Shown here piece after piece: positions 14,420 to 29,146 of a DNA stretch of 54,594 nucleotides. The stretch is from NCBI GenBank assembly GCA_002773615.1, contig PFAP01000002.1, positions 1-54,594 on the forward strand, in the 5' to 3' direction. The translations under genes and the position numbers were made by a program. The DNA is from Candidatus Falkowbacteria bacterium CG10_big_fil_rev_8_21_14_0_10_39_11 (GTDB taxonomy: Bacteria > Patescibacteriota > Patescibacteriia > UBA11705). Numbering within the stretch: the first letter of the stretch is position 1; every line of letters starts with the position of its first letter. The notes below the pieces were generated by a model. The model ran no database searches, was not told the origin of the DNA, and worked only from the letters and a program-made list of their open reading frames with translations.

Positions 14420-17400
14420 ATGGTAAAGCAAAGCAAAAACCAGTTTAGGATTTTTACAACAGTTTTGATGCTGGCTACATTAATTTGGACGGCTGGTGTT
14501 GGTGGCTATTTATTGTTAAATCCATATAATGTCTCAGCTGGAGACTCCCCGATTGTTTTTAGTGAGGTTGAAGTCTCTCCAGGAATTTCTGGTACCAATT
14601 TGTTCACCTCTGATTCATCTTTTGAGTCTTGGGCCGATTCAACCATCCCTGAGCCGTTTGTTGATATGAATGGAAATTCAATACGTGACGAGGATGAGCC
14701 GTATTGTGATTTGGATTCCGGTGGTACACATACAACTTACTCGCAGGCATTACCTAATTCTGCTGATATTTTAGGCTTCTCTTTTGCCTGTGGCGGAAGT
14801 GTTACTCAAGAGACTACAGATGTTTATGATGGAAGTTCAGCTATCCGAATCAATACGGGTGATGGTGAAATGTGGACTGTTTATCCTAATGAAACAACGT
14901 CAATATCAAATTTAACTCAATATACGGTCTCATTTTATGCCAAGGGTTTGGTTGGCGGTGAAAAAATTTATTTGATGTTTGAGCCAACCGGTTTGGATGC
15001 TTCTGAGTACAGCTGGAATTTTGTCACTGAGTCTTCGGCCGTATATGAGGGGTTTATCACTGAAGAGACATCGAAAGTTTATGTGTTGACTGATAGTTGG
15101 GCTCGGTATACATACACCTTTACATCTGATCTTGATGGGACCGCATCGATTGGGTTTGTCGCTGGTGGTACGGGTGATGAGCCGGCTGTATTTATGGGCA
15201 GTGGTGCAAATCAAGTTATGTTGATAGATGCTGTTCAGTTTGAGGCAGATTCTACAGCCTCTTCTTATAACACCGGCGGGTCGGCTGGGTCAAATTTTGT
15301 TGAATTGTACAATCGGGGTGGTGGGGATATTGATGTTGATGGTTACACTGTTGAATATAAATTTGGGGCTGGTGACTGGGCTACTTTTGGAGCTGTTTCT
15401 GGTTCAAATACCTACTCAGGCGGTTACTTTTTCAATTTCAAAGCGTCCGGCGGAGATGCTGGGATCACTGATGAGTCAACATTTGACTCTGCTTTTTTAA
15501 CAAATTCAAATTCAATTGATGGATTGTCTTTACGATTATGCTCAAATGGTGCAGATTGCGCTAATACGATATTGGATACAGTTGGTTTTGGTTCTACTGC
15601 AACTGCATATGAGGGTGTGACGAAGGATGTGACCGGTTGGTCTCAGTCAAAGAGTTTTGAACGTAAGGCTTTATTTGATTCAACGGCTGCAACTATGGCT
15701 TCTGGTGGTAGTGATGAGCCGGCTGGAAACAGTTTTGATTCAGATAATAATAATTGGGATTTTGTGTTAAGAACCACACCTGAGCCTCAAGTCAAAAGCA
15801 GTACCCGTGAAGTTTTTGCAGACAATGTGGTTTTTGAGGATGTTAATCCGTATATTTATCATGAGCCGGTAGTCCAGGCTGATGACAATGGAGATTTGTA
15901 TTTATTCGCCGGTATTTTTGATGATAGTGATATTGCTACTACTGGTGTAAAAATATATTATCGAGTTGGAGACTCAGGATCTTTCACCGCAGCTAATTCA
16001 ACCAAAACAGTTACAGCTACTCCAGATATTACCAGTAGTGATTATTACGCCTTTATTATTCCTCAGGCTGATTTACAGGCAGCGGTTGCTGATGAGGGTG
16101 AGATTCAATATTATCTGGAGGCGAATGACGGCGTTTATACCACCACTATGCCTGATTATAATCCAACTTCATATCCTTTAAGTATTAATGTAACTGGTAC
16201 ATATACTGGAGCAAATGGTTTCTCCGGTACGGTCACGGATACGGCTAGTGCTGCTATTAATGGAGCTCTGGTTTTTATTAATGGGACTGGTTTTTTTACC
16301 TCGACCGATGCTAGTGGAAATTATAGCTTTGCATCACTCCCCTCTTCATATCAAGCCAGTGGATCATATCGAGTAACAGCGGTAATCTCTAATAGAATGG
16401 ATAGTGAATATATCGCTTATGATGGAGATACTACCGTTAATATCACTTTACCTACAGATTTTGGAAATTTTTCAGGTGGTGACAAAGAGGCTCCATTTGT
16501 TTCGTATACATCCCCTTTTGATGGTATGTACGGTATGCCGATTAATATTTGTGATCCAAATGATTCACTTCCTCCGGGAGTCGAGTTTTGTTCTCCGATT
16601 ATGGTTGGATTTTCAGAATCAATGAATTCCAGTACTGTAAATAACACTAATGTTACGGTTTATAATTGGGCAACTTCATCAAATCTCGATAATTTGACAA
16701 TTGAGGCAAATGGTAGTGACAGTGAATTTATTATTTATAGCACGACTCCCCTAGCTCCGAATACAACATATACAGTTTCTCTGGGTACGGGTGTTAAAGA
16801 TCATGCCAGCAATGCGTTGGGAGGAAATATGTCAGATGGAACGCATGAATTTACTTTTACAACAGAAGGGACTGAGTTTACCGGTGAGGGAGACCAGGAA
16901 TTTGGCAGCGGTGCTTTTCAGCCGCCATTTGTTCGAACAGTATCTCCAAATTTAGGTGGAAGTAATATTGCATTAAATGCGAAGTTGGTTGTTGATTTTG
17001 TTACTTCGGTAGACGTCTCGGAAACTAATTTAGCAAGAATTAAATTGTATGATGGCGACGATGAGATAAGTGTAACGCATACATATAGCACTGATAATCA
17101 ACGAGTATTTTTACAGCCATCGACTACATTAACGGCAAACACCGAATATGAAATTCAAGTTGCGGGTTCTTTTACTAGCAGTATGGGAGTTAGTCTTGGT
17201 GACCCTGGTCAATCTCAAAATTCCGATAATTATGTTTTCTTTGCATCGGAGTTTAAAACTGGAGCTACTTCTGATACCGTTGGACCTAAGGTGATGGGAC
17301 ATATTCCGGCATCTGGTGAAACAAGTGTAGCTGTTGGACTTTCTGCTGTTGAGATTGCGGTTAATGAATCATTGGATTCTTCTACAGTTAATACCACGAA

Positions 17401-20400
17401 TGTAAAATTAAAGAGAGGTAGTACTGTGGTGGGGGCTGAGGTGGTTTATAAGGAAACGGCAAAGGCAATCAGAATTTTGCCAAGTTCAGCTCTTCAAGCA
17501 AATACATCCTACACCGTTACTGTTGGTGTGGGTGTGACGGATATAGTCGGTAATGCATTTAATCAAGATGAAGACGCTTCAAATGGTGAGGCGTTGGAAG
17601 ATGTGTACGTATTTCAGTTTACGACAATGTCCACGATTGAATCTACCGCTCCTACAGTTATGGATGCCAGATGTGATGATTATCAATGTGTAATTACGTA
17701 CAGTGAATCCATGAATCATGTAAAGCAGATAAATACTGAAGATTGGACTGATGCTGTGGGTAAATGGGAAACAAGTGTGTTAAATAAAACTAATTATAAT
17801 ATTTCTGTCGATACCGGGGGCGGGCTGGCTTCGGCTGATCTTTCATCGGTTTTGTTATCTTATGACGGATATACAAACACTGTATCAATTAAAAATTTGA
17901 ATTTGTTAAGTGGTGTGGCCAATCCTGTCGGACAGCAAATGCCATATACCGTTACGGTTTATAGTTCGGTTGAGGCTGGGAAAGATGGTGTTCGGGATGT
18001 AGTTGGAAATGCTTTGGCTGCAAATGCTGTTTATGGTGGAAGTGTGGAGCTGAGTTCGGCAACTGGTGGTTTCTTTGGCCCTGATGCTGATGGTTTTGGG
18101 TCAGATGGTCCAGGAGATTTTGGTATGCATGATGCTGCAACCATGGGTGAAAAACCAATCGGTGTTTGGCCAATGAACGGTTTGGTCGGTTCAACGACTC
18201 ATTATTTTGTTGACCTTCCAGTTACTTCCGTTGTCCCAAATGGGGGGATTATCACGATGCTGTTTCCAAGTGGTTTCAACGTTGCCAATGCAGCAATAGA
18301 TTCAAATAGTCCAATGAATAAAGATGTTTCAGCCGGCTCGGGAAATGTTACCTTGAATTGTAGTGGTGATGCGGCTACTCGTTTGATAACGTGTACAGTT
18401 ACTGGAGCAACCAACACCAATGATTATTTGAGCTTTGAATTGAAAGGAATTGTAAATTCAAATATACCTAAAGATTTTAATACATCTGGTTATACGGTTG
18501 AGGTAAAAACAAAAAATGGTTCAACTTTACTGGAATCATTTACCACTATGCCATTTTTTATCACAGCTGGTGGAAATAATAGTATAACGTTGAATGTTTA
18601 TGCCGGAGCCAAGGTTGATGCGACAACCGGAAGTGTTGATGTTGATGGGACAACAATGAATTTGTTTGTTGGATCACCTATGACCGGTCCTTTGGATCAG
18701 ACTGTGACCTTTACGAACGGATATGCCACCGCAACTATCAATAATCTGCCTTCAGGTGAATATTTTGCATTTACCGAGCCGTCAGTTACATTGGGAGCCA
18801 GTGATTATTCCGGGATAATGCCAGAGCCTATTCACTTGAACTCATCAGTTAGCAAAGATTTGATTTTAAGTCGGATGGATGAATCATCGGCGGCAGCTTT
18901 GACGGTTTTGCTTACCGGAGATTTTGGAGCTGATGAAGATGTGGATATTTTTGCCGGTCATCCAAAGGGTTTTGTTGTCAAGACGATTGAAAATGTTGGT
19001 TCGGTTGTAAATCAACCTTATACAGTATATTTACCTTACAATGGTGACTGGTTCGTTGGAATGGGACCGTCTATGTCAAAGGGTGCAGTGGCGACGACTA
19101 TCGCTATGCCTGACTGGATGCCTCCAAAAGATAAAATGCTCAAAGTCACTGGGGTTGGAGAGTCGGTGCAAATAAAAAATATTGAAACACAAGGTGATGT
19201 AACCAGCAGTGGAGTTTCATTTGCCATATCTCAAGCGAATTATCAAATTAATGGAACTGTTGTTGATGGTTCAAATAATGTTATTGCCAATGCAGAGGTT
19301 TGGGCTTATCAACCGATGGGGTTTGGTGGAAGCGGTAATTTTACTCGGACTGGGTCAGATGGAACATTTACTCTAAAGATTGCCGAGTATGGAGTCTACA
19401 AAGTAGGTGCTTTTTTGCCAGGAATGCCAGAGTCACCTGAACTTTCAATCAATGTAAAGGCCAATTCAGCAGAAGTTGATGGAAATGCAACCTCAGATAT
19501 TTATCGTGGAGGTACTTTGGTCACTGCTGGTAATCCGTTTAAATTAAAATTATTAAAAGCTGATTATACGATTTCGGGTAAGGTTAAGGATGCAAATGCA
19601 AATGCTATTCAATATGCACCAGTTTGGGCTGAAGAAACAACGACTAAACAGCTAGTTCATGCTGGTACCGATTCCGGTGGTAGTTACGTGTTATATGTGG
19701 GGGCTGGAACTTGGTTGGTAAAATCAGAAGCACCATTTGGATCTGATGCCTGTGGTGGTATAAGTAAGACGGTGACGGTTGTAGATGGCTCGAAAACGGG
19801 ACAAAATTTGGAGCCAACAGCTGGGACGTGTTATACCCTGAGCGGTACGATTTCAATTGGTGGAACTCTTCAAACAAATGCGCCTGTATTTGTTGATGGT
19901 TGGACTGGTGATTTGAATACCGGCTATCCAAATGGAATCTTTAAGGATGCAAAGACAAATAGTGCCGGTCAGTTTTCAGTCAAGGTAGGAAATGGTACAT
20001 ATCGAGTCGGAACATGGACTTCTGATTTTGGTGAACGTGCGATTCTTGTCTCGATAAGTGGTGCAGATTCATCAGGAAATGACATTACGGTGACTAGTGA
20101 TAATTTGAAAACTTTAACGATTGATTTTACTGGGGGGCTATCTTCGATGACCGGTTTTCTGGAAGCAAAAAAAATAAACACTTCTGATCGACGCGGGAAA
20201 CCGGTAAGTAATTTGGCAGCCTCAGAAACAATGCAGTTAGAATCGGGTATGTATAAAGTTTTTTTACATGTTGATGGTGTTGGAGATTTCAATAATGCGA
20301 GTGTCGATTTGTCTTCTGATGCTTCAGTGGTTTTTGACATTTCATCTGTTTCATTAAATACTCTTACTGGAACGGTTGAGGATACCGATGGTACGGCGGT

Positions 20401-22063
20401 GCCAAATGCTTGGGTTTGGGTACATGATCCAAACACTGATTATCATAATGGTGTGGCAACGGGTTCGGATGGTACTTATTCAATGTCGGTTAAATCTGGT
20501 ACTGGGTTTAAGATTGGTGTTGATAAACCGAATTATGTATCCCCGGCCCCCCATAATATCAATATTTCCGGAACTGCAAGTTACGATTTTACGAATAATA
20601 TGGGATTGAGTGCGACTCAATATATAATTTCAGGTACGGCTACGGGAACAAATTTGGCTGATGGATTTATTTGGGCTGAAAGTGCGACTGAAGGCTGGTC
20701 TGGTAGCCCAATTGATATTGATGGTACTTTTTCGTTGCCGGTTTCAGATGGTACCTGGACATTGAAAGGTGTGGCGGCTTTGCATGCAGAGACCACCTAT
20801 GGCAGTCCAATTGTCATTGACGGTGCAAGTCAAACCGGAATTTCATTTGCATTGACTTCGGATGTAACCAAATCGGTAAAATCAGCAGTAAATTCAATTA
20901 CGCCATCTGTTGGTGGGGTGATTCAAGACAATGATGTCGGGGCCAAAGTGGTGGTTCCACCAAACGCTTTGGGTAGTGGTTCAAGTGCCGGTAATATGAC
21001 AATGGCAAAATCCTATACGGCTCCATCCACCAACGCATATGCTCCATTGGAAGGGCAATCAATTAATATAAGTGTTACAGACAATAATGGACAACCAATT
21101 ACAAATTTGAACGATCAAGTTGAGCTAACTTTGGATTATTCGGTTGACAATTTGCCTGCTGGGGTAGTAGAAGATGATTTGGTCCCAGCGTATTGGGATG
21201 GTACGACAAATCAATGGATTCCAATTACTGGAGTTCAAGATTCAGATGATAATTCTTTTACCGCACAAACAGATCACTTTACTATTTTTGGTGTGGTTTA
21301 TTCCCCATTGGTATCATCATCAAGTGCAGCTACAAACAGTAGTCGTTCGAGTCAGTTGGCTGAGGAAGGCCGGGTTGAATCAGATGTAACAGGAACAACA
21401 GATTCGATCGAAATTATTGATGAAGCTACTGATTCTGCTGATGAAGAAACCGTAAATGAGGCTACTGATGAAATTACTGATTCTGTTGATGAATTAGAAA
21501 CTGTGACGGAAGTTGTTGAAGAAGTAGTCGAGGATACAACTCGGTATGTCCCTATTTTGCCAACGACTAGAGATTTGGATGGTGAAAAGGATGCGATCTC
21601 AAAATATGTTGGTTTGGAAAACAGGTTGCCAGCTGGTGATGACTGGAAGGTGGTGCAATTTATTACTTATGGCGGTGCCAGTGAGACTCAAAATCTCACC
21701 GATCGTGAAAGAGTTGGGTTGTTGGTAGATTTTAAAGATATGTATGGTCGAGTACCAAGCTCTGATATAGATTGGAAAGATCTTAATCTAATTGCACAGG
21801 GTGAGCAACCAACTCGGATTATACCGCGAGAAGCAGACGCTATTAGAGATTTTATGGATGTTTACGGTCGTTTAGTTAATTTTAAGAGTCAAGTTGAAGA
21901 AAAATTTGTTCACATGGTTGCCTATCGATACCGAGTTGAGTCTAGAGATTTGAACAAGGAAAATACAGCTTTGGGTATATTCTCAAATGCATATGGTTAC
22001 TTGCCAAATAGTGCACATCTTTGGTCAGTGCTTCGTGCAATTGCCTATTCGGGGGTGAAATAA
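14420..22063 (+). CDS. giant surface protein (2547 aa): lamin-tail-like, repeated Ig-like (Big_5-type) and carboxypeptidase-regulatory-like domains
   Basis: signal peptide; FSESMNSSTV/LAPNTTYTV Ig repeats; ISGTV.D...AW repeats; TDHFTIF; C-terminal WSVLRAIAYSG. Confidence 0.9.
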   Translation: MVKQSKNQFRIFTTVLMLATLIWTAGVGGYLLLNPYNVSAGDSPIVFSEVEVSPGISGTNLFTSDSSFESWADSTIPEPFVDMNGNSIRDEDEPYCDLDSGGTHTTYSQALPNSADILGFSFACGGSVTQETTDVYDGSSAIRINTGDGEMWTVYPNETTSISNLTQYTVSFYAKGLVGGEKIYLMFEPTGLDASEYSWNFVTESSAVYEGFITEETSKVYVLTDSWARYTYTFTSDLDGTASIGFVAGGTGDEPAVFMGSGANQVMLIDAVQFEADSTASSYNTGGSAGSNFVELYNRGGGDIDVDGYTVEYKFGAGDWATFGAVSGSNTYSGGYFFNFKASGGDAGITDESTFDSAFLTNSNSIDGLSLRLCSNGADCANTILDTVGFGSTATAYEGVTKDVTGWSQSKSFERKALFDSTAATMASGGSDEPAGNSFDSDNNNWDFVLRTTPEPQVKSSTREVFADNVVFEDVNPYIYHEPVVQADDNGDLYLFAGIFDDSDIATTGVKIYYRVGDSGSFTAANSTKTVTATPDITSSDYYAFIIPQADLQAAVADEGEIQYYLEANDGVYTTTMPDYNPTSYPLSINVTGTYTGANGFSGTVTDTASAAINGALVFINGTGFFTSTDASGNYSFASLPSSYQASGSYRVTAVISNRMDSEYIAYDGDTTVNITLPTDFGNFSGGDKEAPFVSYTSPFDGMYGMPINICDPNDSLPPGVEFCSPIMVGFSESMNSSTVNNTNVTVYNWATSSNLDNLTIEANGSDSEFIIYSTTPLAPNTTYTVSLGTGVKDHASNALGGNMSDGTHEFTFTTEGTEFTGEGDQEFGSGAFQPPFVRTVSPNLGGSNIALNAKLVVDFVTSVDVSETNLARIKLYDGDDEISVTHTYSTDNQRVFLQPSTTLTANTEYEIQVAGSFTSSMGVSLGDPGQSQNSDNYVFFASEFKTGATSDTVGPKVMGHIPASGETSVAVGLSAVEIAVNESLDSSTVNTTNVKLKRGSTVVGAEVVYKETAKAIRILPSSALQANTSYTVTVGVGVTDIVGNAFNQDEDASNGEALEDVYVFQFTTMSTIESTAPTVMDARCDDYQCVITYSESMNHVKQINTEDWTDAVGKWETSVLNKTNYNISVDTGGGLASADLSSVLLSYDGYTNTVSIKNLNLLSGVANPVGQQMPYTVTVYSSVEAGKDGVRDVVGNALAANAVYGGSVELSSATGGFFGPDADGFGSDGPGDFGMHDAATMGEKPIGVWPMNGLVGSTTHYFVDLPVTSVVPNGGIITMLFPSGFNVANAAIDSNSPMNKDVSAGSGNVTLNCSGDAATRLITCTVTGATNTNDYLSFELKGIVNSNIPKDFNTSGYTVEVKTKNGSTLLESFTTMPFFITAGGNNSITLNVYAGAKVDATTGSVDVDGTTMNLFVGSPMTGPLDQTVTFTNGYATATINNLPSGEYFAFTEPSVTLGASDYSGIMPEPIHLNSSVSKDLILSRMDESSAAALTVLLTGDFGADEDVDIFAGHPKGFVVKTIENVGSVVNQPYTVYLPYNGDWFVGMGPSMSKGAVATTIAMPDWMPPKDKMLKVTGVGESVQIKNIETQGDVTSSGVSFAISQANYQINGTVVDGSNNVIANAEVWAYQPMGFGGSGNFTRTGSDGTFTLKIAEYGVYKVGAFLPGMPESPELSINVKANSAEVDGNATSDIYRGGTLVTAGNPFKLKLLKADYTISGKVKDANANAIQYAPVWAEETTTKQLVHAGTDSGGSYVLYVGAGTWLVKSEAPFGSDACGGISKTVTVVDGSKTGQNLEPTAGTCYTLSGTISIGGTLQTNAPVFVDGWTGDLNTGYPNGIFKDAKTNSAGQFSVKVGNGTYRVGTWTSDFGERAILVSISGADSSGNDITVTSDNLKTLTIDFTGGLSSMTGFLEAKKINTSDRRGKPVSNLAASETMQLESGMYKVFLHVDGVGDFNNASVDLSSDASVVFDISSVSLNTLTGTVEDTDGTAVPNAWVWVHDPNTDYHNGVATGSDGTYSMSVKSGTGFKIGVDKPNYVSPAPHNINISGTASYDFTNNMGLSATQYIISGTATGTNLADGFIWAESATEGWSGSPIDIDGTFSLPVSDGTWTLKGVAALHAETTYGSPIVIDGASQTGISFALTSDVTKSVKSAVNSITPSVGGVIQDNDVGAKVVVPPNALGSGSSAGNMTMAKSYTAPSTNAYAPLEGQSINISVTDNNGQPITNLNDQVELTLDYSVDNLPAGVVEDDLVPAYWDGTTNQWIPITGVQDSDDNSFTAQTDHFTIFGVVYSPLVSSSSAATNSSRSSQLAEEGRVESDVTGTTDSIEIIDEATDSADEETVNEATDEITDSVDELETVTEVVEEVVEDTTRYVPILPTTRDLDGEKDAISKYVGLENRLPAGDDWKVVQFITYGGASETQNLTDRERVGLLVDFKDMYGRVPSSDIDWKDLNLIAQGEQPTRIIPREADAIRDFMDVYGRLVNFKSQVEEKFVHMVAYRYRVESRDLNKENTALGIFSNAYGYLPNSAHLWSVLRAIAYSGVK

Positions 22064-24756: not shown

Positions 24757-26298
24757 CTACTTTTTGCTTAATTCCAGTATGGCCTCTTTTAGGCGTTGCG
24801 TTGTTCTGTCTTTGCCCAGGACGTGGGCGATTTCAAATGGACCCGGTGATTTCTCTTGTCCGGAGAGAGCGACTCGCATCGGCCATAAAACATCACCGTT
24901 TTGGAGGTTGTTATCTTCAATGATTTTTTTTATCTCTTTTTCAATGTTTTCAGCCGAGAAATCTTCATTTGGTACGCTGTGTATTGTTTCCAATATGTAT
25001 TGAAGGGCTTGGAGCGTAGTTTTGTGGTCTGATTTTTTGAATATGAGCGTTTGGGAGTCAAAATTTAATTTTGATGGAAAAACAAATTGGATTGCGTCAG
25101 AAATTTCATTGGTTTTTTTGATTCGGTTCTTTTCCAGTGAACAATAGTTTTTTATATCGTTGAATGAAATCTCTTTATTTGTCAGGTTGTTGATGTATTG
25201 ATTTTCACTCTTTGGTGAGATTAATTTTGCTTCAATTAGGAATGGCAAGCATTCGGTAGCGAAGTTTTCGTCAGATAGTTCTCTCAGATACATACCGTTG
25301 ATCCAATCTAATTTTTCTAAATCAAATATGGCGCCTTTTTTGTGGACATTATCGAGTGAAAATTGTTTGATCATTTCATCTACAGTGTATATCTCTTGTT
25401 CTGTACCGGCGTTCCATCCCAGTAAGGCAATAAAGTTGATCAAAGCATTTTTAATATATCCAGATTTGATAAAATCTTTGACTGAGACGTCGCCATCTCG
25501 TTTACTCATTTTCTTTTTACTTTGGTTTAGAATTTGCGGTAGATGGGCAAACCTCGGTGGCTGCCAATCAAAAGCATCATATAACATTACATGCTTGGGG
25601 GTGCTGGAGATCCATTCGTCACCACGCATGACATGAGTGATTTTCATCAAATGGTCGTCAACGATGTTGGCAAAGTGATAGGTCGGAAATTGATCAGCCT
25701 TGATCAGAACAAAGTCATCCAAATCTTTGGTATTGACCTTGATGGTGCCTCGAATCTCATCGTCAAAAACAACCTCTTTGTCTTCTGGCATTTTGAAGCG
25801 GATAACTCTGGATTCGTTATAAGTTAATTTTTTGTGTATTTCTTCTTTTGATAAGTGGCGGCATAAACCATCATACTTTGGTGGCAGTTTGTCTTTTTTT
25901 TGTTGTTCGCGAAGTTCGTTAATTCTTTCTTTGGAGCAAAAACAGTAATAGGCTTTATTTTTATCTAACAGAGTCTGAATATGTTTGGTGTATATGTCTA
26001 ATCTTTCAGATTGGATATAGGGACCGTAGTCCCCTTTTTGGATGATTTTCCCGTCAACGATAAATGGTCCTTCGTCATAGCTGAAATCGGCCCATTCAAG
26101 AGTCTTGAGTAAGTCTTCCAGTGCGCCGTCGACATATCTGGTGCGATCTGTGTCTTCAATGCGGACAATAAAAGTACCATCATTATGACGAGCAAAGAGA
26201 TAGTTGTATAAAATTGTTCTTAGGTTACCGACATGGACAAAACCGGTTGGACTGGGGGCGATACGGACGCGGACGTTAGTTGGGGTCTTTGAGGACAT
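24757..26298 (-). CDS. gltX: glutamate--tRNA ligase
   Basis: RIAPSPTGFVHVGN (HIGH), RIEDTD, KMSKR. Confidence 0.97.
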   Translation of the reverse strand: MSSKTPTNVRVRIAPSPTGFVHVGNLRTILYNYLFARHNDGTFIVRIEDTDRTRYVDGALEDLLKTLEWADFSYDEGPFIVDGKIIQKGDYGPYIQSERLDIYTKHIQTLLDKNKAYYCFCSKERINELREQQKKDKLPPKYDGLCRHLSKEEIHKKLTYNESRVIRFKMPEDKEVVFDDEIRGTIKVNTKDLDDFVLIKADQFPTYHFANIVDDHLMKITHVMRGDEWISSTPKHVMLYDAFDWQPPRFAHLPQILNQSKKKMSKRDGDVSVKDFIKSGYIKNALINFIALLGWNAGTEQEIYTVDEMIKQFSLDNVHKKGAIFDLEKLDWINGMYLRELSDENFATECLPFLIEAKLISPKSENQYINNLTNKEISFNDIKNYCSLEKNRIKKTNEISDAIQFVFPSKLNFDSQTLIFKKSDHKTTLQALQYILETIHSVPNEDFSAENIEKEIKKIIEDNNLQNGDVLWPMRVALSGQEKSPGPFEIAHVLGKDRTTQRLKEAILELSKK

Positions 26299-26423
26299 AT
26301 TTTTAAATTATAAATTGTAGGAAGGTTACTTAATAATAAAAACTATAATGTTTTGTTTCAATAATACGTTTTTTGAAGACAAAGTCAATGTTTCTTGTAT
26401 GAGAGTATACTCGTGACAGTTAC

Positions 26424-26485
26424 CCTTCCCGCCTTCACAATAGTTTCGGCGGACAGGCGAGTGCCCTGCCTGCCGGTAGGTAAGG
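26424..26485. repeat. two adjacent palindromic elements (CCTTCCCGCC...GGCGGACAGG and CCTGCCTGCCGGTAGG)
   Basis: same families occur at 6935, 47852 and 50589. Confidence 0.65.
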
Positions 26486-26624
26486 CTCTCGAAGTATAGT
26501 TACTTAGCACTTATTCATATACATATTTATATCACAACTATCAAGTTTAGTGAAGTATTTCTAAAATGGTGACGTCTTTAAGTGCCTTAAATTAGCTATT
26601 TTTGTAAAATTGTGTTAACTGGTA

Positions 26625-26653
26625 TTGACACTATTGAAAAACTATGCTATAAT
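26625..26653 (+). promoter_or_regulatory. perfect sigma70 promoter P1
   Basis: TTGACA 26625-30, 17 nt, TG-C-TATAAT 26648-53. Confidence 0.85.
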
Positions 26654-26769
26654 GGTTTATTAAGCTGAGAAATTTGTGAGTTCATTATAAGACATCTGGA
26701 TCATTTTGTTGAGGCAACGCCTCTCTATAGTATATAGCTTGTCGTTATATTATATAGATATTTTTAGCC

Positions 26770-26798
26770 TTGACAAAATAATTTAAGTGTGTTATAAT
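26770..26798 (+). promoter_or_regulatory. perfect sigma70 promoter P2
   Basis: TTGACA 26770-75, 17 nt, TG-T-TATAAT 26793-98. Confidence 0.85.
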
Positions 26799-26804
26799 AT
26801 TCAC

Positions 26805-27085
26805 ATGATCATTAAAATGTGAGGTAATTTAAAGCAACAACTCTTATTGAATTTGCACATTGTCATTCACGGGTTTAACCCGGGAATTTACAAGGTCAAA
26901 TTCAATGAGGGTTGTGAGATAGTGTCTCCTACCCTGTAGCGTCGCGAAAGGTTCGGCTCGGATTCGTTGATTCACTCTGGTCCTAACATAAACAGGACCT
27001 TTGGGCTATTGCAGCCGACAAACGTGAAATCAACTTTTCCATGGCCGGACCGATCACCTTTCGAATGGGGTTAAATCCCCTTTAT
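26805..27085 (+). ncRNA. structured 5' leader or ncRNA of unknown family
   Basis: rod-like hairpin 26837-26915 with G-U pairs; multibranch domain 26945-27063; hairpin 27067-27080. Confidence 0.6.
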
Positions 27086-27097
27086 TGGAGGATCTAC

Positions 27098-28219
27098 ATG
27101 TCCAACGTGAAGCAGGCCACCGAGATTCAGTTCTCCTACCCGACGTCGATTCAGGCTCTCGTGGCCGAAAACGGAAGCGCGTTCAATCCGAACGCGCTCG
27201 TCCAGTCGGAACTGTTCGTGACCGCGGGCCAGACGCAGGCGCCGCGACCGTTCCAAGCGCGCTATGCGCGCGTGCTGGTCGACAGCGGGCGTCTGTTCAA
27301 CGCGAACGACTCCGGAGTGGTGCTCCGGAGCGTTGGCGCGGTCAACATGAAACTGAGAGCGGCCGGGAAGCCCCTGGTCGACGGCAGTTTCATTCCGCTC
27401 GCCGAGGCGCTCGGCATTCGCCGGGCCCGTGACCAGTACGGTGACGACCTCGAGTCGCTGCTCATCAGCGACGACGAGAAGGTCATCCTGACCGGAGAGG
27501 AGGTCCGTGACCTGGACCTCGATCCCATCACGCTCCAGGAGCGTATGGGTTCCGGTGCCGGAGTGATGGATTTGGAGCGTGTCGCCCGCTGGGAACAGCG
27601 GATGCGCCTCTACGAGGCCGCGATCGAGGCGAACTCGGCGATCTTCGCCGAGCTCAAGGGCAACATCGAACAGGACACGCGGAACGGATGGAGTGAGGCG
27701 ATCTGCCAGACCACCGAGGCGTGGCTCAAGTTCGTGGAAGCCATGAACGCCTTCGCGGAGGAGATGGGCTTCAAGTGGGACGGTACGCCGGCCCCGCCGA
27801 CCCCCCCCGCCTTCCCGCTCGCCGTCCTTCGCATCTACGCGAGGGGCAAGGGCCTCCGGTTCGTCCTTCTCGTCCCGGACAATCGCCACAAGGCGGCGGC
27901 GATGATGAAGTGGAGCGAGCAGATGGAGCACGCTCGCGAGCCGGAGAACTATCGGGACTTCACCGACAAGGTTCTGGCTCCCCTGAACATCATGCAGGCT
28001 CGCCTGCGTGAGAACGGGGTTCCGCAGGACGCTCCCACCTTCCAGGACAAGGCGGAAGTGCTCACCACGAACTTCCTCAGCGTCGCTGGGGTGTCGCTGG
28101 AAGAGCTGGCCGATCAGTCCCGGGCGCCGCGCGAGGACCGGCCCCGTGGCAAGGGTAAGCGCGGTGACCGTCACTCGCGCAGGTCCCAGGGTCACCAGTG
28201 GGTGCCCAACGCCGACTGA
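27098..28219 (+). CDS. GC-rich orphan protein with Arg/Lys-rich C-terminal tail
   Basis: GGAGG SD at 27087-91 before ATG 27098; strong C/G third-position bias; terminator downstream. Confidence 0.85.
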   Translation: MSNVKQATEIQFSYPTSIQALVAENGSAFNPNALVQSELFVTAGQTQAPRPFQARYARVLVDSGRLFNANDSGVVLRSVGAVNMKLRAAGKPLVDGSFIPLAEALGIRRARDQYGDDLESLLISDDEKVILTGEEVRDLDLDPITLQERMGSGAGVMDLERVARWEQRMRLYEAAIEANSAIFAELKGNIEQDTRNGWSEAICQTTEAWLKFVEAMNAFAEEMGFKWDGTPAPPTPPAFPLAVLRIYARGKGLRFVLLVPDNRHKAAAMMKWSEQMEHAREPENYRDFTDKVLAPLNIMQARLRENGVPQDAPTFQDKAEVLTTNFLSVAGVSLEELADQSRAPREDRPRGKGKRGDRHSRRSQGHQWVPNAD

Positions 28220-28289
28220 GACCGCTGAGTTTGAGACGACCTCACATTCCCCGTGATCCTTCCGCCTCTTCCGAGGCAAGAACGAAAAT

Positions 28290-28324
28290 AAGATCCAAGC
28301 AACCGCTTGGATCTTTTCCCTTTT
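28290..28324 (+). terminator. intrinsic terminator
   Basis: AAGATCCAAGC-AACC-GCTTGGATCTT followed by a pyrimidine run. Confidence 0.8.
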
Positions 28325-28552
28325 AAATAATTCTAAGAAGTAAGGCATTATACTTAATGAATTGTCATTGAAGCTTTGCTGGGCTTATCTTATTGCTGAA
28401 TAATTTATCCTTTTATTTTTTTATGATGTTTATTGACTTTAGGCTATCTTGATTGTATGATAAAAATAGAGCTATTTCACTAACAGAGCAATCATCTGCT
28501 GGGAGGCGCAGATTGAGACTCTATCAATGCACGTACTTTCTCGGAGGTGACC

Positions 28553-29146
28553 ATGTCTAAAGAAAAATGTGAGCCTGGTCGTTTTTTTAGAGTCACCGAT
28601 GACTTCTGGCGGGATCTACTATCGAGACAAATGAAGTTCCACCAAGGTGTTGATGGCTTTGATATCGCCGAAATTTTTTCGGCTCGAGACAGACGCCTGG
28701 TGTTCATGGTTCCTAGATTGTCGAGCGACATTGGCGCCATTGATATGAAGCTGGTGCAAAGTATTGTGTCAAGTCCAAGTCAGTGTCAGGACTTTGATCG
28801 TATTCCTTTCTCTGTGCAAATTTTGAAAACGGTTGGGTTGGTTTATTTCGTGCAGATGACGGTTGATGATTTGAAGGTTGCGGTATTAATTGCAGTGCCC
28901 TATTCCAAATATAGCCAGGAATATGATGGATATATTGGTTTTATTAAATTGGATAAGGTCAAGTGGTCGGATGTAGGGAAAATTGAATTTGATTCTGATG
29001 ACCATTCTATGGTTTATCGAGATTATGTGTCTGGTGATATGGAAATATGTCTGATGGTCAAGAAAGAACACAAGGACACTAGAATCTCCTTGTCACCATC
29101 CATTAGCATGAGTACAGATGGCCGGAGATTTATTCGAGTATCATAA
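28553..29146 (+). CDS. hypothetical protein
   Basis: GGAGGTG SD before ATG 28553; terminator CAGACT..AGTCTG follows. Confidence 0.7.
   Translation: MSKEKCEPGRFFRVTDDFWRDLLSRQMKFHQGVDGFDIAEIFSARDRRLVFMVPRLSSDIGAIDMKLVQSIVSSPSQCQDFDRIPFSVQILKTVGLVYFVQMTVDDLKVAVLIAVPYSKYSQEYDGYIGFIKLDKVKWSDVGKIEFDSDDHSMVYRDYVSGDMEICLMVKKEHKDTRISLSPSISMSTDGRRFIRVS

Follow-up and report, generated by a model that had tools for sequence, protein, structure and literature searches.

Atypical base composition is routinely read as a sign of recent gene transfer, and the locus described here raises the question of whether that reading holds for a gene that keeps a G+C fraction at third codon positions (GC3) of 0.70-0.97 in genomes of about 39% GC. 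The window, by which we mean the whole stretch of DNA analysed, comprises 54,594 nucleotides (nt) (contig PFAP01000002.1, positions 1 to 54,594) from Candidatus Falkowbacteria bacterium CG10_big_fil_rev_8_21_14_0_10_39_11, a member of the Candidate Phyla Radiation (CPR) (assembly GCA_002773615.1, here G000; 1.10 Mb in 53 contigs, 84.8% complete, GC 0.393, mean GC3 0.38). At 27098-28219 on the plus strand lies a gene for a protein of 373 amino acids (P0001; stop codon TGA), with a GC of 0.654 against 0.389 for the window. A sequence-only reading of this island had offered two origins for it, a very recent single-gene capture from a high-GC donor or a codon usage kept by selection. We hold with high confidence that the composition is native, ancient and maintained by selection. 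The best explanation overall, to which we give somewhat better than even chances, is a native ancient orphan gene whose composition is held by selection on mRNA folding.

The jump in composition, first judged by eye, is genuine, and its borders are sharp. Over 27100-28299 the 200-nt windows have a GC of 0.62-0.685, compared with 0.275-0.475 in the 600 nt upstream of 27000 and 0.30-0.47 beyond 28300. Among the 54 one-kilobase bins of the window only 27001-28000 exceeds 0.47 (0.629; the rest are at or below 0.467), and the most GC-rich of 10,780 windows of 500 nt genome-wide sits in the island (0.666; mean 0.393, standard deviation (sd) 0.042). There is some shading at the flanks: GC has already risen to 0.43-0.60 over the final 200 nt of the leader and is still 0.53-0.60 in the roughly 55 nt that follow the stop codon. 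By codon position the GC of the gene is 0.67, 0.44 and 0.85 (GC1, GC2 and GC3). C or G fills 86% of its third positions (C 0.44, G 0.42, T 0.10, A 0.04; genome 0.17, 0.19, 0.37 and 0.27), which bears out the earlier impression of codons ending almost wholly in C or G. Set against the 1077 open reading frames (ORFs) of the genome, a comparison that the sequence-only reading had itself proposed, the gene ranks second by GC3 (z = 5.9).

The preferred codons are AAG, CAG, GAG, TTC, ATC, CTC/CTG and GCC/GCG, where the genome prefers A- or T-ending synonyms. GC3 of highly expressed genes is low (EF-Tu 0.26, EF-G 0.31, ribosomal-protein cluster 0.23-0.44); the codon usage of the gene is the reverse of theirs and is not an adaptation to the cell's own best-translated codons. 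The amino acids are shifted as well, with more alanine (11.8% vs 6.5% in the comparison set) and arginine (8.6% vs 4.2%) and less lysine (3.8% vs 7.5%) and isoleucine (3.5% vs 7.8%). Three-base periodicity, a Shine-Dalgarno site and protein-like conservation identify the frame as a real coding gene. Its start is the ATG at 27098, which lies behind GGAGGA and is kept in relatives, rather than the ATG at 27041. An ORF of 425 amino acids on the minus strand was rejected as a gene, since its GC by codon position (0.80/0.43/0.65) is highest at the first position, and it is a by-product of the composition.

Misassembly at the borders, which would have made the island an artefact, is excluded. In the runs that may be the source of the assembly (X1 and X2), a single 18-kb contig covers 25800-28429 with no differences and at the depth of the neighbouring contig, and both junctions are spanned by contigs of further runs, the 3' one in X3 (27537-28429) and the 5' one in X4 (27032-27240). 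Differences such as the variable sites of a diversity-generating retroelement target or other hypermutation locus were not seen between the contigs of the four runs, although contigs hide rare variants. The absence of an integrase or transposase, as noted at the outset, holds for the part of the window that was scanned, 13 ORFs lying between 12104 and 37217; there is no tRNA gene in the window and no direct repeat brackets the island.

Two places where contigs branch lie close by. Contigs of three runs stop or branch at 28400-28429 with another continuation, just before a promoter-like site at 28433-28461, a pattern that points to a strain variant or a short repeat. At 26422-26465, within a GC-rich palindromic element (26418-26498) between gltX and the first promoter, the contigs of all four runs branch. 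This element matches many other sites in the genome, and one copy lies directly upstream of a GC-rich gene on contig C27.

Word-based and exhaustive searches of 1.84 billion representative proteins returned a sole relative, P0002 (42% identical, E 2e-70). It is encoded by another Candidatus Falkowbacteria genome of the same genus (G024, locus L002), where it likewise forms an island (GC 0.63-0.72 vs 0.25-0.40 in the flanks), and the order of genes around it is that of G000: M23 peptidase, gltX, the GC-rich gene, a conserved hypothetical gene, NUDIX, WecG and ClpB. No homologue outside the CPR was found in the 1.84e9 representatives, in a word search of 5.8e9 sequences, or in viral or metagenome contigs (0 of 102 and 0 of 519 pattern matches confirmed, respectively). 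A near-identical gene in a high-GC organism, named by the sequence-only reading as the mark of ordinary recent transfer, was not found among the 1.84 billion. A hidden Markov model (HMM) of the G000 and G024 pair matched only these two of the 26 genomes of the order. A further candidate, P0003, was rejected as an independent relative; its extra 24 residues are window sequence past the stop, with TGA read as tryptophan.

The slot beside gltX is nonetheless filled in other genera. gltX was located in 25 of the 26 genomes of the order, and GC-rich DNA adjoins it on the 5' side in most members of families f1, f2 and f3, and not in f4. In 12 of 19 regions fetched from the order there is a same-orientation ORF of 316-569 amino acids with GC 0.57-0.69 and GC3 0.70-0.95. 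The other seven comprise three regions of only about 0.5 GC with no ORF passing the filter (G004, G007, G001), one with two overlapping ORFs near a contig end (G013), one cut by a contig start (G010), G011 and the f4 control G021. The slot region of G018 is likewise cut by a contig end. Downstream, NUDIX is present in 16 of the 19 regions and WecG in 17. Altogether, 16 genomes from three families have a GC-rich gene, always in this orientation, in the slot that is divergent from gltX and precedes NUDIX and WecG, with GC3 of 0.70-0.97. Thus the orthologues in related CPR genomes, whose composition had been suggested as a check, are GC-rich too. In the f4 control (G021, locus L057) there is no GC-rich region, and WecG lies beside gltX with no NUDIX between them; either the slot module was acquired once f4 had diverged, or f4 has lost it.

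Within family f1, slot genes occur in other genera (G022, 371 amino acids; G025, about 490 amino acids; GC3 0.89 in both). Pairwise BLASTP between the f1 types is weak (E 0.13 and 0.006), and after three more G022-type proteins were added from assemblies, hhalign of A1 against A2 gave 92.7% (E 4e-7) over 189 collinear columns that reach into the basic tail. The G025 type gives 83.9%, and BLASTP of the G000 protein against one G022-type protein gave E 2e-8. Iterated HMMs join all ten f3 proteins in one family and all seven f1 proteins in another. The weak matches between families always fall at the same motif of helix, linker and beta-hairpin. Across families, 'orthologue' is used here in a positional sense, defined by position, orientation, composition and tail. 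Similarity drops with host distance, from 42% within the genus to profile level within the family and to near nothing between families.

Some further observations concern individual slots. A class-level search with the G022 protein matched two of 401 genomes, G022 itself and an HD-domain protein of G162, encoded in AT-rich DNA, whose local similarity we attribute to chance. In G008 (L042, 349-2067) the slot gene encodes 569 amino acids; the second half of this product (348-545) can be aligned with residues 165-354, the C-terminal part, of the G012 protein, and an internal duplication is therefore suspected. At the contig end of G025 (L013, 9800-10421) GC remains at 0.54-0.60 beyond the slot gene, with an ORF there for a membrane-protein-like product of 159 amino acids (GC3 0.70).

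The age of the composition can be judged from silent sites. Between G000 and G024 the slot gene has the lowest amino acid identity of the block, 41%, compared with 67-79% for gltX, M23, NUDIX and WecG and 52% for the downstream hypothetical; its nucleotide identity by codon position is 0.57/0.63/0.51. At unchanged residues, codon identity is 0.55 in the slot gene vs 0.56 expected at saturation (gltX and M23, 0.47-0.52 vs 0.42-0.45), and since this is near the saturation value, nearly every silent site has changed since the two genomes split. GC3 in four f1 genomes is 0.85, 0.97, 0.89 and 0.89. A GC3 of 0.85-0.97 at silent sites close to saturation is therefore not the outcome of neutral drift under the bias of the genome. 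Taken with the lack of a donor, the same retention rules out recent capture and makes repeated import unlikely. Of the two origins first offered, the idea that composition is kept by selection holds in its general form. Its specific form, translation on the tRNAs of a high-GC host, would not predict the folding beyond synonymous shuffles that is described below.

The enrichment also tracks the coding region, as the mean profile of 15 loci rises and falls with the frame. Mean GC is 0.30-0.36 at -330 to -61, 0.43-0.45 around the ribosome-binding site and 0.48 in the first 30 coding nt; it is 0.57-0.72 in the rest of the frame, then 0.52 and 0.47 where the terminator lies, falling to 0.36-0.41 from 60 nt past the stop.

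Around this frame lies what appears to be a complete transcription unit, all of it on the plus strand. Two promoters of the form TTGACA-17-TATAAT, each with a TG before the -10 element and 12 of 12 consensus positions, lie at 26625-26653 (P1, conserved in G024) and 26770-26798 (P2, conserved in G024 and in G022 of another genus). From P2, a structured 5' leader of about 290 nt is predicted at 26807-27097. Its folding (26807-27110) has a minimum free energy of -107 kcal/mol vs -76.2 (sd 5.3) for shuffles (z = -5.85), and it contains a hairpin of about 35 bp at 26837-26915 (z = -8.1), in which four pairs are retained by compensatory double changes when compared with G024. In G022 a hairpin of different sequence stands at the same place (z = -8.1), and a predicted leader stem-loop is found in three genera at z -6.7 to -8.1. 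The ribosome-binding site GGAGGA (27084-27089) lies 8 nt before the ATG, and both G024 and G022 retain it along with that codon; across genera, conservation of the promoter, the beginning of the leader and the Shine-Dalgarno site extends as far as the start codon. Downstream, an intrinsic terminator has an 11-bp stem, a 4-nt loop and a T-rich tail (28290-28325). Among the 12 loci of f2 and f3, eight have a promoter at 12 of 12 consensus positions and three more at 11 of 12, most have the long leader hairpin and terminator, and terminator-like hairpins occur 3' of the gene in the other loci.

Between P1 and P2, about 115 nt (26655-26769) are conserved in G024 except for an insertion there; the stretch could be a short transcript or a section of a longer leader. 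In G024 an extra ORF for 130 amino acids (L002, 8905-9297) lies between gltX and the leader of the GC-rich gene; it is missing from G000, and the G024 intergenic region is longer by that amount.

What, then, would selection be acting on? The folding of the coding sequence (CDS) was assessed as the mean energy of its 120-nt windows, compared with permutations of synonymous codons within the gene that leave protein, codon usage and GC3 unchanged. All 15 orthologues, which are related loci and not 15 independent trials, fold more stably than their shuffles (z -1.9 to -16.5, mean -6.2; -5.2 in G000). Nine ordinary genes of the same genome gave a mean z of -1.03 (range +0.2 to -3.0), and six of its other GC-rich genes -1.67 (range +1.6 to -4.0). 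In 15 of 15 loci the excess is greater for the sense strand than for the antisense strand (-6.05 vs -4.08 kcal per 100 nt), as expected if G-U pairs in RNA count.

The folding excess stems from many short hairpins. Perfect stems of at least 7 bp are enriched in seven of the 15 orthologues and in none of ten control genes; G017 has 14 where 1.0 is expected, and G000 has five against 0.9 (sd 0.9), a number reached in none of 100 shuffles. Among those predicted in the G000 sequence are perfect hairpins of 9 bp (27176-27198), 8 bp (27310-27330) and 8 bp (27634-27652). The average unpaired probability of the G000 coding sequence, computed in 240-nt blocks and hence not strictly comparable with published designs, is 0.339, compared with 0.373 (sd 0.008) for shuffles, 0.41 for EF-Tu and 0.50 for gltX.

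Several points weigh against selection on folding as the explanation. The gain in pairing from codon arrangement is modest in G000 (0.339 vs 0.373), and most of the pairing follows from GC content itself, with cause and effect unseparated. The positions of perfect hairpins are not conserved, G024 having one where G000 has five, and the count of 15 in 15 loci overstates their independence. Neither HMMs nor hhalign establish homology between the f1, f2 and f3 proteins (E 7e-4 to 4e-3 and probability 8-26% with hhalign). Folding cannot explain the whole GC-rich class, as the other GC-rich genes show it more weakly, one of them with a positive z. Lastly, GC1 and GC2 are raised and the amino acids shifted, a pattern that a directional mutational force would also give. 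Selection on mRNA folding is the best-supported mechanism, and not a proven one; we consider its chances evenly poised.

We propose that the slot holds an orphan protein gene of Falkowbacteria-like CPR bacteria, one that is native and ancient and evolves very fast. It would be transcribed as a unit of its own, which has two consensus promoters, a leader of 290 nt that includes the long hairpin, a Shine-Dalgarno site, a frame of 373 codons and an intrinsic terminator. GC-richness would be a property of the coding part of the transcript, held by selection for as long as the order has existed, and not a mark of foreign origin. With G or C at nearly every third position and neighbouring codons pairing with each other, the message would be far more base-paired than ordinary mRNAs, and the 5' hairpin, folded coding sequence and 3' terminator may together give a nuclease-resistant, long-lived and probably slowly translated message. 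The long life is suggested by analogy with 5' stem-loop stabilisers and with work on coding-region structure, which, in the available part of that source, lengthens the functional half-life of mRNA (PMC6883848). That message stability is the benefit of folding is a tentative prediction from these analogies. A possible reason to protect its own messages comes from a preprint which, as far as its available text goes, describes Patescibacteria as importing and degrading host RNA and as having a codon usage complementary to that of GC-rich hosts (10.64898/2026.06.21.733656); the same behaviour would equally feed the first of the alternatives considered below.

That alternative is codon-gated expression, in which the use of the cell's least-used codons ties output to scarce tRNAs that read C- or G-ending codons, to host tRNAs or to host G and C nucleotides, and thereby to contact with a host. 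It would account for a usage inverse to that of the EF-Tu and ribosomal-protein genes and for an enrichment limited to the coding sequence. Among the tRNAs that the genome retains are some with CNN and GNN anticodons, able to read these codons; the usage is common to about eight genes, and the host-RNA uptake and complementary codon usage reported in the available part of the preprint (10.64898/2026.06.21.733656) would fit. However, gating does not predict folding beyond that of synonymous shuffles with the same codons, and it leaves the raised GC1 and GC2 unexplained. We regard it as unlikely, though it survives better than the other alternatives.

A local neutral force, such as a mutational bias peculiar to the locus or GC-biased gene conversion at a recombination hot spot, could raise GC and speed divergence at the same time. 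The slot gene does diverge fastest in its block, its first and second positions and amino acid make-up are shifted, and its hairpins turn over rapidly, all of which would fit such a force. A regional process would not stop at the borders of the coding sequence, as the enrichment does in the 15 loci, with leaders at 0.30-0.36. Second codon positions remain the most conserved, an excess of folding on the sense strand is not predicted by a process acting on DNA, and the contigs of the four runs, within the limits already given, do not differ. This makes a neutral force quite improbable.

Repeated import, with the slot as a hot spot in which related genes have been inserted many times from some high-GC pool not yet sampled (phage, plasmid or host), has in its favour a composition typical of a high-GC organism, a sequence similarity that is barely detectable between families, and a cassette-like anatomy of promoter, gene and terminator. 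Against this, the searches of 1.84e9 representatives, 5.8e9 sequences and viral and metagenome contigs found no relative outside the CPR, and different genera share a promoter, leader start and Shine-Dalgarno site that are conserved all the way to the ATG. The 13 ORFs scanned include no mobility gene, tRNA and flanking repeat are absent too, and similarity falls with the distance between hosts. We consider repeated import very unlikely.

The protein itself offers few clues. P0001 has no match in Pfam, PHROGs, NCBIfam or PADLOC, and Pfam searches with 15 family members and PHROGs searches with 16 proteins gave nothing above cut-offs, with a sub-threshold HHH_5 match in G005 and G006 only. AlphaFold2 (AF2) gave poor models, with a predicted local distance difference test (pLDDT) score of 34.6 for P0001 as a single sequence and 52.0 for a seven-row alignment with the G022 protein first, in which only the N-terminal domain (residues 11-100) reaches about 58-84. 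From these models the protein may consist of an alpha/beta N-terminal domain, one or more helical hairpins, a proline-rich hinge, a small beta-hairpin/helix domain and a disordered basic tail. With such poor models, Foldseek (PDB and BFVD) and VIA-align wide found nothing at E <=0.001 (MerB N-terminal domain E 0.5, helical hairpins Z <=5.5). PDB profile searches were empty or gave E >0.3, and the ESM Atlas held no usable match for P0001 and unnamed clusters only for the G012 protein.

The PAPPTPP hinge noticed in the sequence-only reading is present, at residues 231-237, and so is the basic string that it took for the end of the protein, although ten further residues come after it. The basic tail (about residues 339-373, encoded at 28112-28216), rich in arginine, lysine and glycine and often with a tryptophan near its end, is found in most positional orthologues, and because it recurs in this way, binding of nucleic acid by the tail stays plausible; as a prediction from sequence it is a doubtful one. 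The capsid- or nucleoprotein-like identity once proposed finds no support in any fold or family match, the models being as poor as stated.

One more speculative reading joins protein and message. The protein and its mRNA might form a ribonucleoprotein that is handed to the host and translated there or, in a milder version, the message might be read well only with inflowing host tRNAs or G and C nucleotides. It draws on codons like those of GC-rich hosts, dispersed hairpins in the mRNA and the capsid-like arginine-rich tail, and we think it very improbable in either version; if true, the roughly eight GC-rich genes of the genome would be a host-contact regulon defined by composition alone. Still less credible is a large structured non-coding RNA with the frame as a by-product of high GC. 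It would suit the dense predicted structure and the long frames that high GC opens on both strands, but it is opposed by strong three-base periodicity (GC3 0.85 vs GC2 0.44), by the open frame, start codon and Shine-Dalgarno site seen in 15 loci, by protein-like conservation and by the absence of any Rfam match at E up to 1 over 25800-29000. Very recent capture from a high-GC donor, for all that the sharp borders and orphan protein invite it, is refuted by syntenic GC-rich genes in 16 genomes of the genus, family and order, near-saturated synonymous sites and the lack of a donor, while a shared contaminant is countered by the X3 and X4 contigs that bridge the junctions and by X1 and X2 depth equal to that of the neighbouring contig.

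The neighbours of the gene, among the 13 ORFs scanned, encode housekeeping or surface proteins. The slot is anchored by the divergent gltX (24757-26298, minus strand; Pfam tRNA-synt_1c, E 1.7e-106), and downstream lies the gene for a conserved hypothetical protein of 199 amino acids (28547-29146, plus strand), with matches in four of five f1 genomes. Within f1 it is always 3' of the GC-rich gene, with 52% identity in G024 and 22-27% in G022 and G025; it has no Pfam or PHROGs family, and tblastn found no match in the f2, f3 and f4 regions. Elsewhere in the window, 14420-22063 encodes a protein of 2547 amino acids with Big_5 and CarboxypepD_reg domains and a weak sub-threshold lamin-tail match. 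It is preceded by a 704-amino-acid protein with only weak sub-threshold lamin-tail and carbohydrate-binding matches, and both are likely to be giant surface proteins, judging from their sequences.

About eight genes of the genome have a GC3 of at least 0.75, with none between 0.70 and 0.75, and they share their codon usage. The seven others lie on contigs C28 (7600-7965), C22 (9298-9600), C15 (4209-4682), C45 (7041-7502), C27 (8358-9434 and 37454-37801) and C5 (17302-18186). Most of the GC-rich genes have a near-consensus promoter and a terminator, and several have lipoprotein- or signal-peptide-like starts. For the lipoprotein-like gene on C5 there is an orthologue in G024 (37% identity), which likewise forms a GC island, whereas the GC-rich gene on C45 has no match in four genomes of the family. 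No published account of persistent GC-rich genes in CPR genomes was found in the literature searched.

These observations have practical consequences, as a compositional island can be a selected, native trait. Detectors of horizontal gene transfer that rely on composition, and filters for binning or contamination, will misjudge such CPR genes, and gene callers trained on an AT-rich background may choose the wrong strand or start. If mRNA folding is what is selected, the locus would offer a direct test of how far selection on RNA structure can shape both codon usage and protein sequence.

Known systems resemble the slot gene in part. Viral capsid proteins and nucleoproteins carry arginine-rich tails, and the slot protein has a comparable disordered end rich in arginine, lysine and glycine, kept as a feature and not as a sequence. 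Unlike them, it has no capsid-like fold match (among poor models), viral family or viral context. As in acquired islands and ORFans, a stretch of one gene deviates in composition and codon usage (GC3 z = 5.9) and encodes a protein without relatives. Unlike acquired islands, it is neither recent nor patchy, has no donor and, in the 13 ORFs scanned, no marks of mobility, and it occupies one slot across three families. Under the amelioration model of Lawrence and Ochman, horizontally acquired genes drift towards the composition of their host, whereas the composition of the slot gene is undrifted despite near-saturated synonymous sites. Phage morons are autonomous units of promoter, gene and terminator with deviant composition. 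The slot gene is like them in having its own consensus promoter and intrinsic terminator and a composition unlike that of its neighbours, but these neighbours are gltX, M23 peptidase, NUDIX, WecG and ClpB, and there is no prophage, PHROGs match or viral contig.

The bacterial mRNAs ompA, aprE and cry3A STAB-SD are stabilised by 5' stem-loops. The slot gene shares with them, by prediction, a long 5' leader hairpin with compensatory changes and a strong 3' terminator hairpin, and it differs in that its hairpin starts about 30 nt from the predicted 5' end in G000. To our knowledge, a shift in GC and an excess of folding over the whole coding sequence are not known from ompA, aprE or cry3A STAB-SD.

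The remaining comparison is with mRNAs made by design. In the available parts of the sources, designed 'superfolder' mRNAs have average unpaired probabilities of 0.13-0.28, compared with 0.34-0.40 for standard sequences (PMC7457604), and in structure-optimised mRNAs pairing guards against degradation and extends functional half-life (PMC7457604, PMC6883848). As in superfolders, synonymous codon choice raises pairing of the coding sequence in the slot gene. Unlike them, the slot gene is natural and milder; as a further point against the folding explanation, its value in G000 is 0.34, the level of ordinary GC-rich synthetic mRNAs as far as that source describes them, and G017 at 0.292 comes close to the designed range without reaching it (PMC7457604). 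If mRNA folding is selected at this locus, the slot genes would be natural counterparts of these hand-designed, structure-optimised mRNAs.

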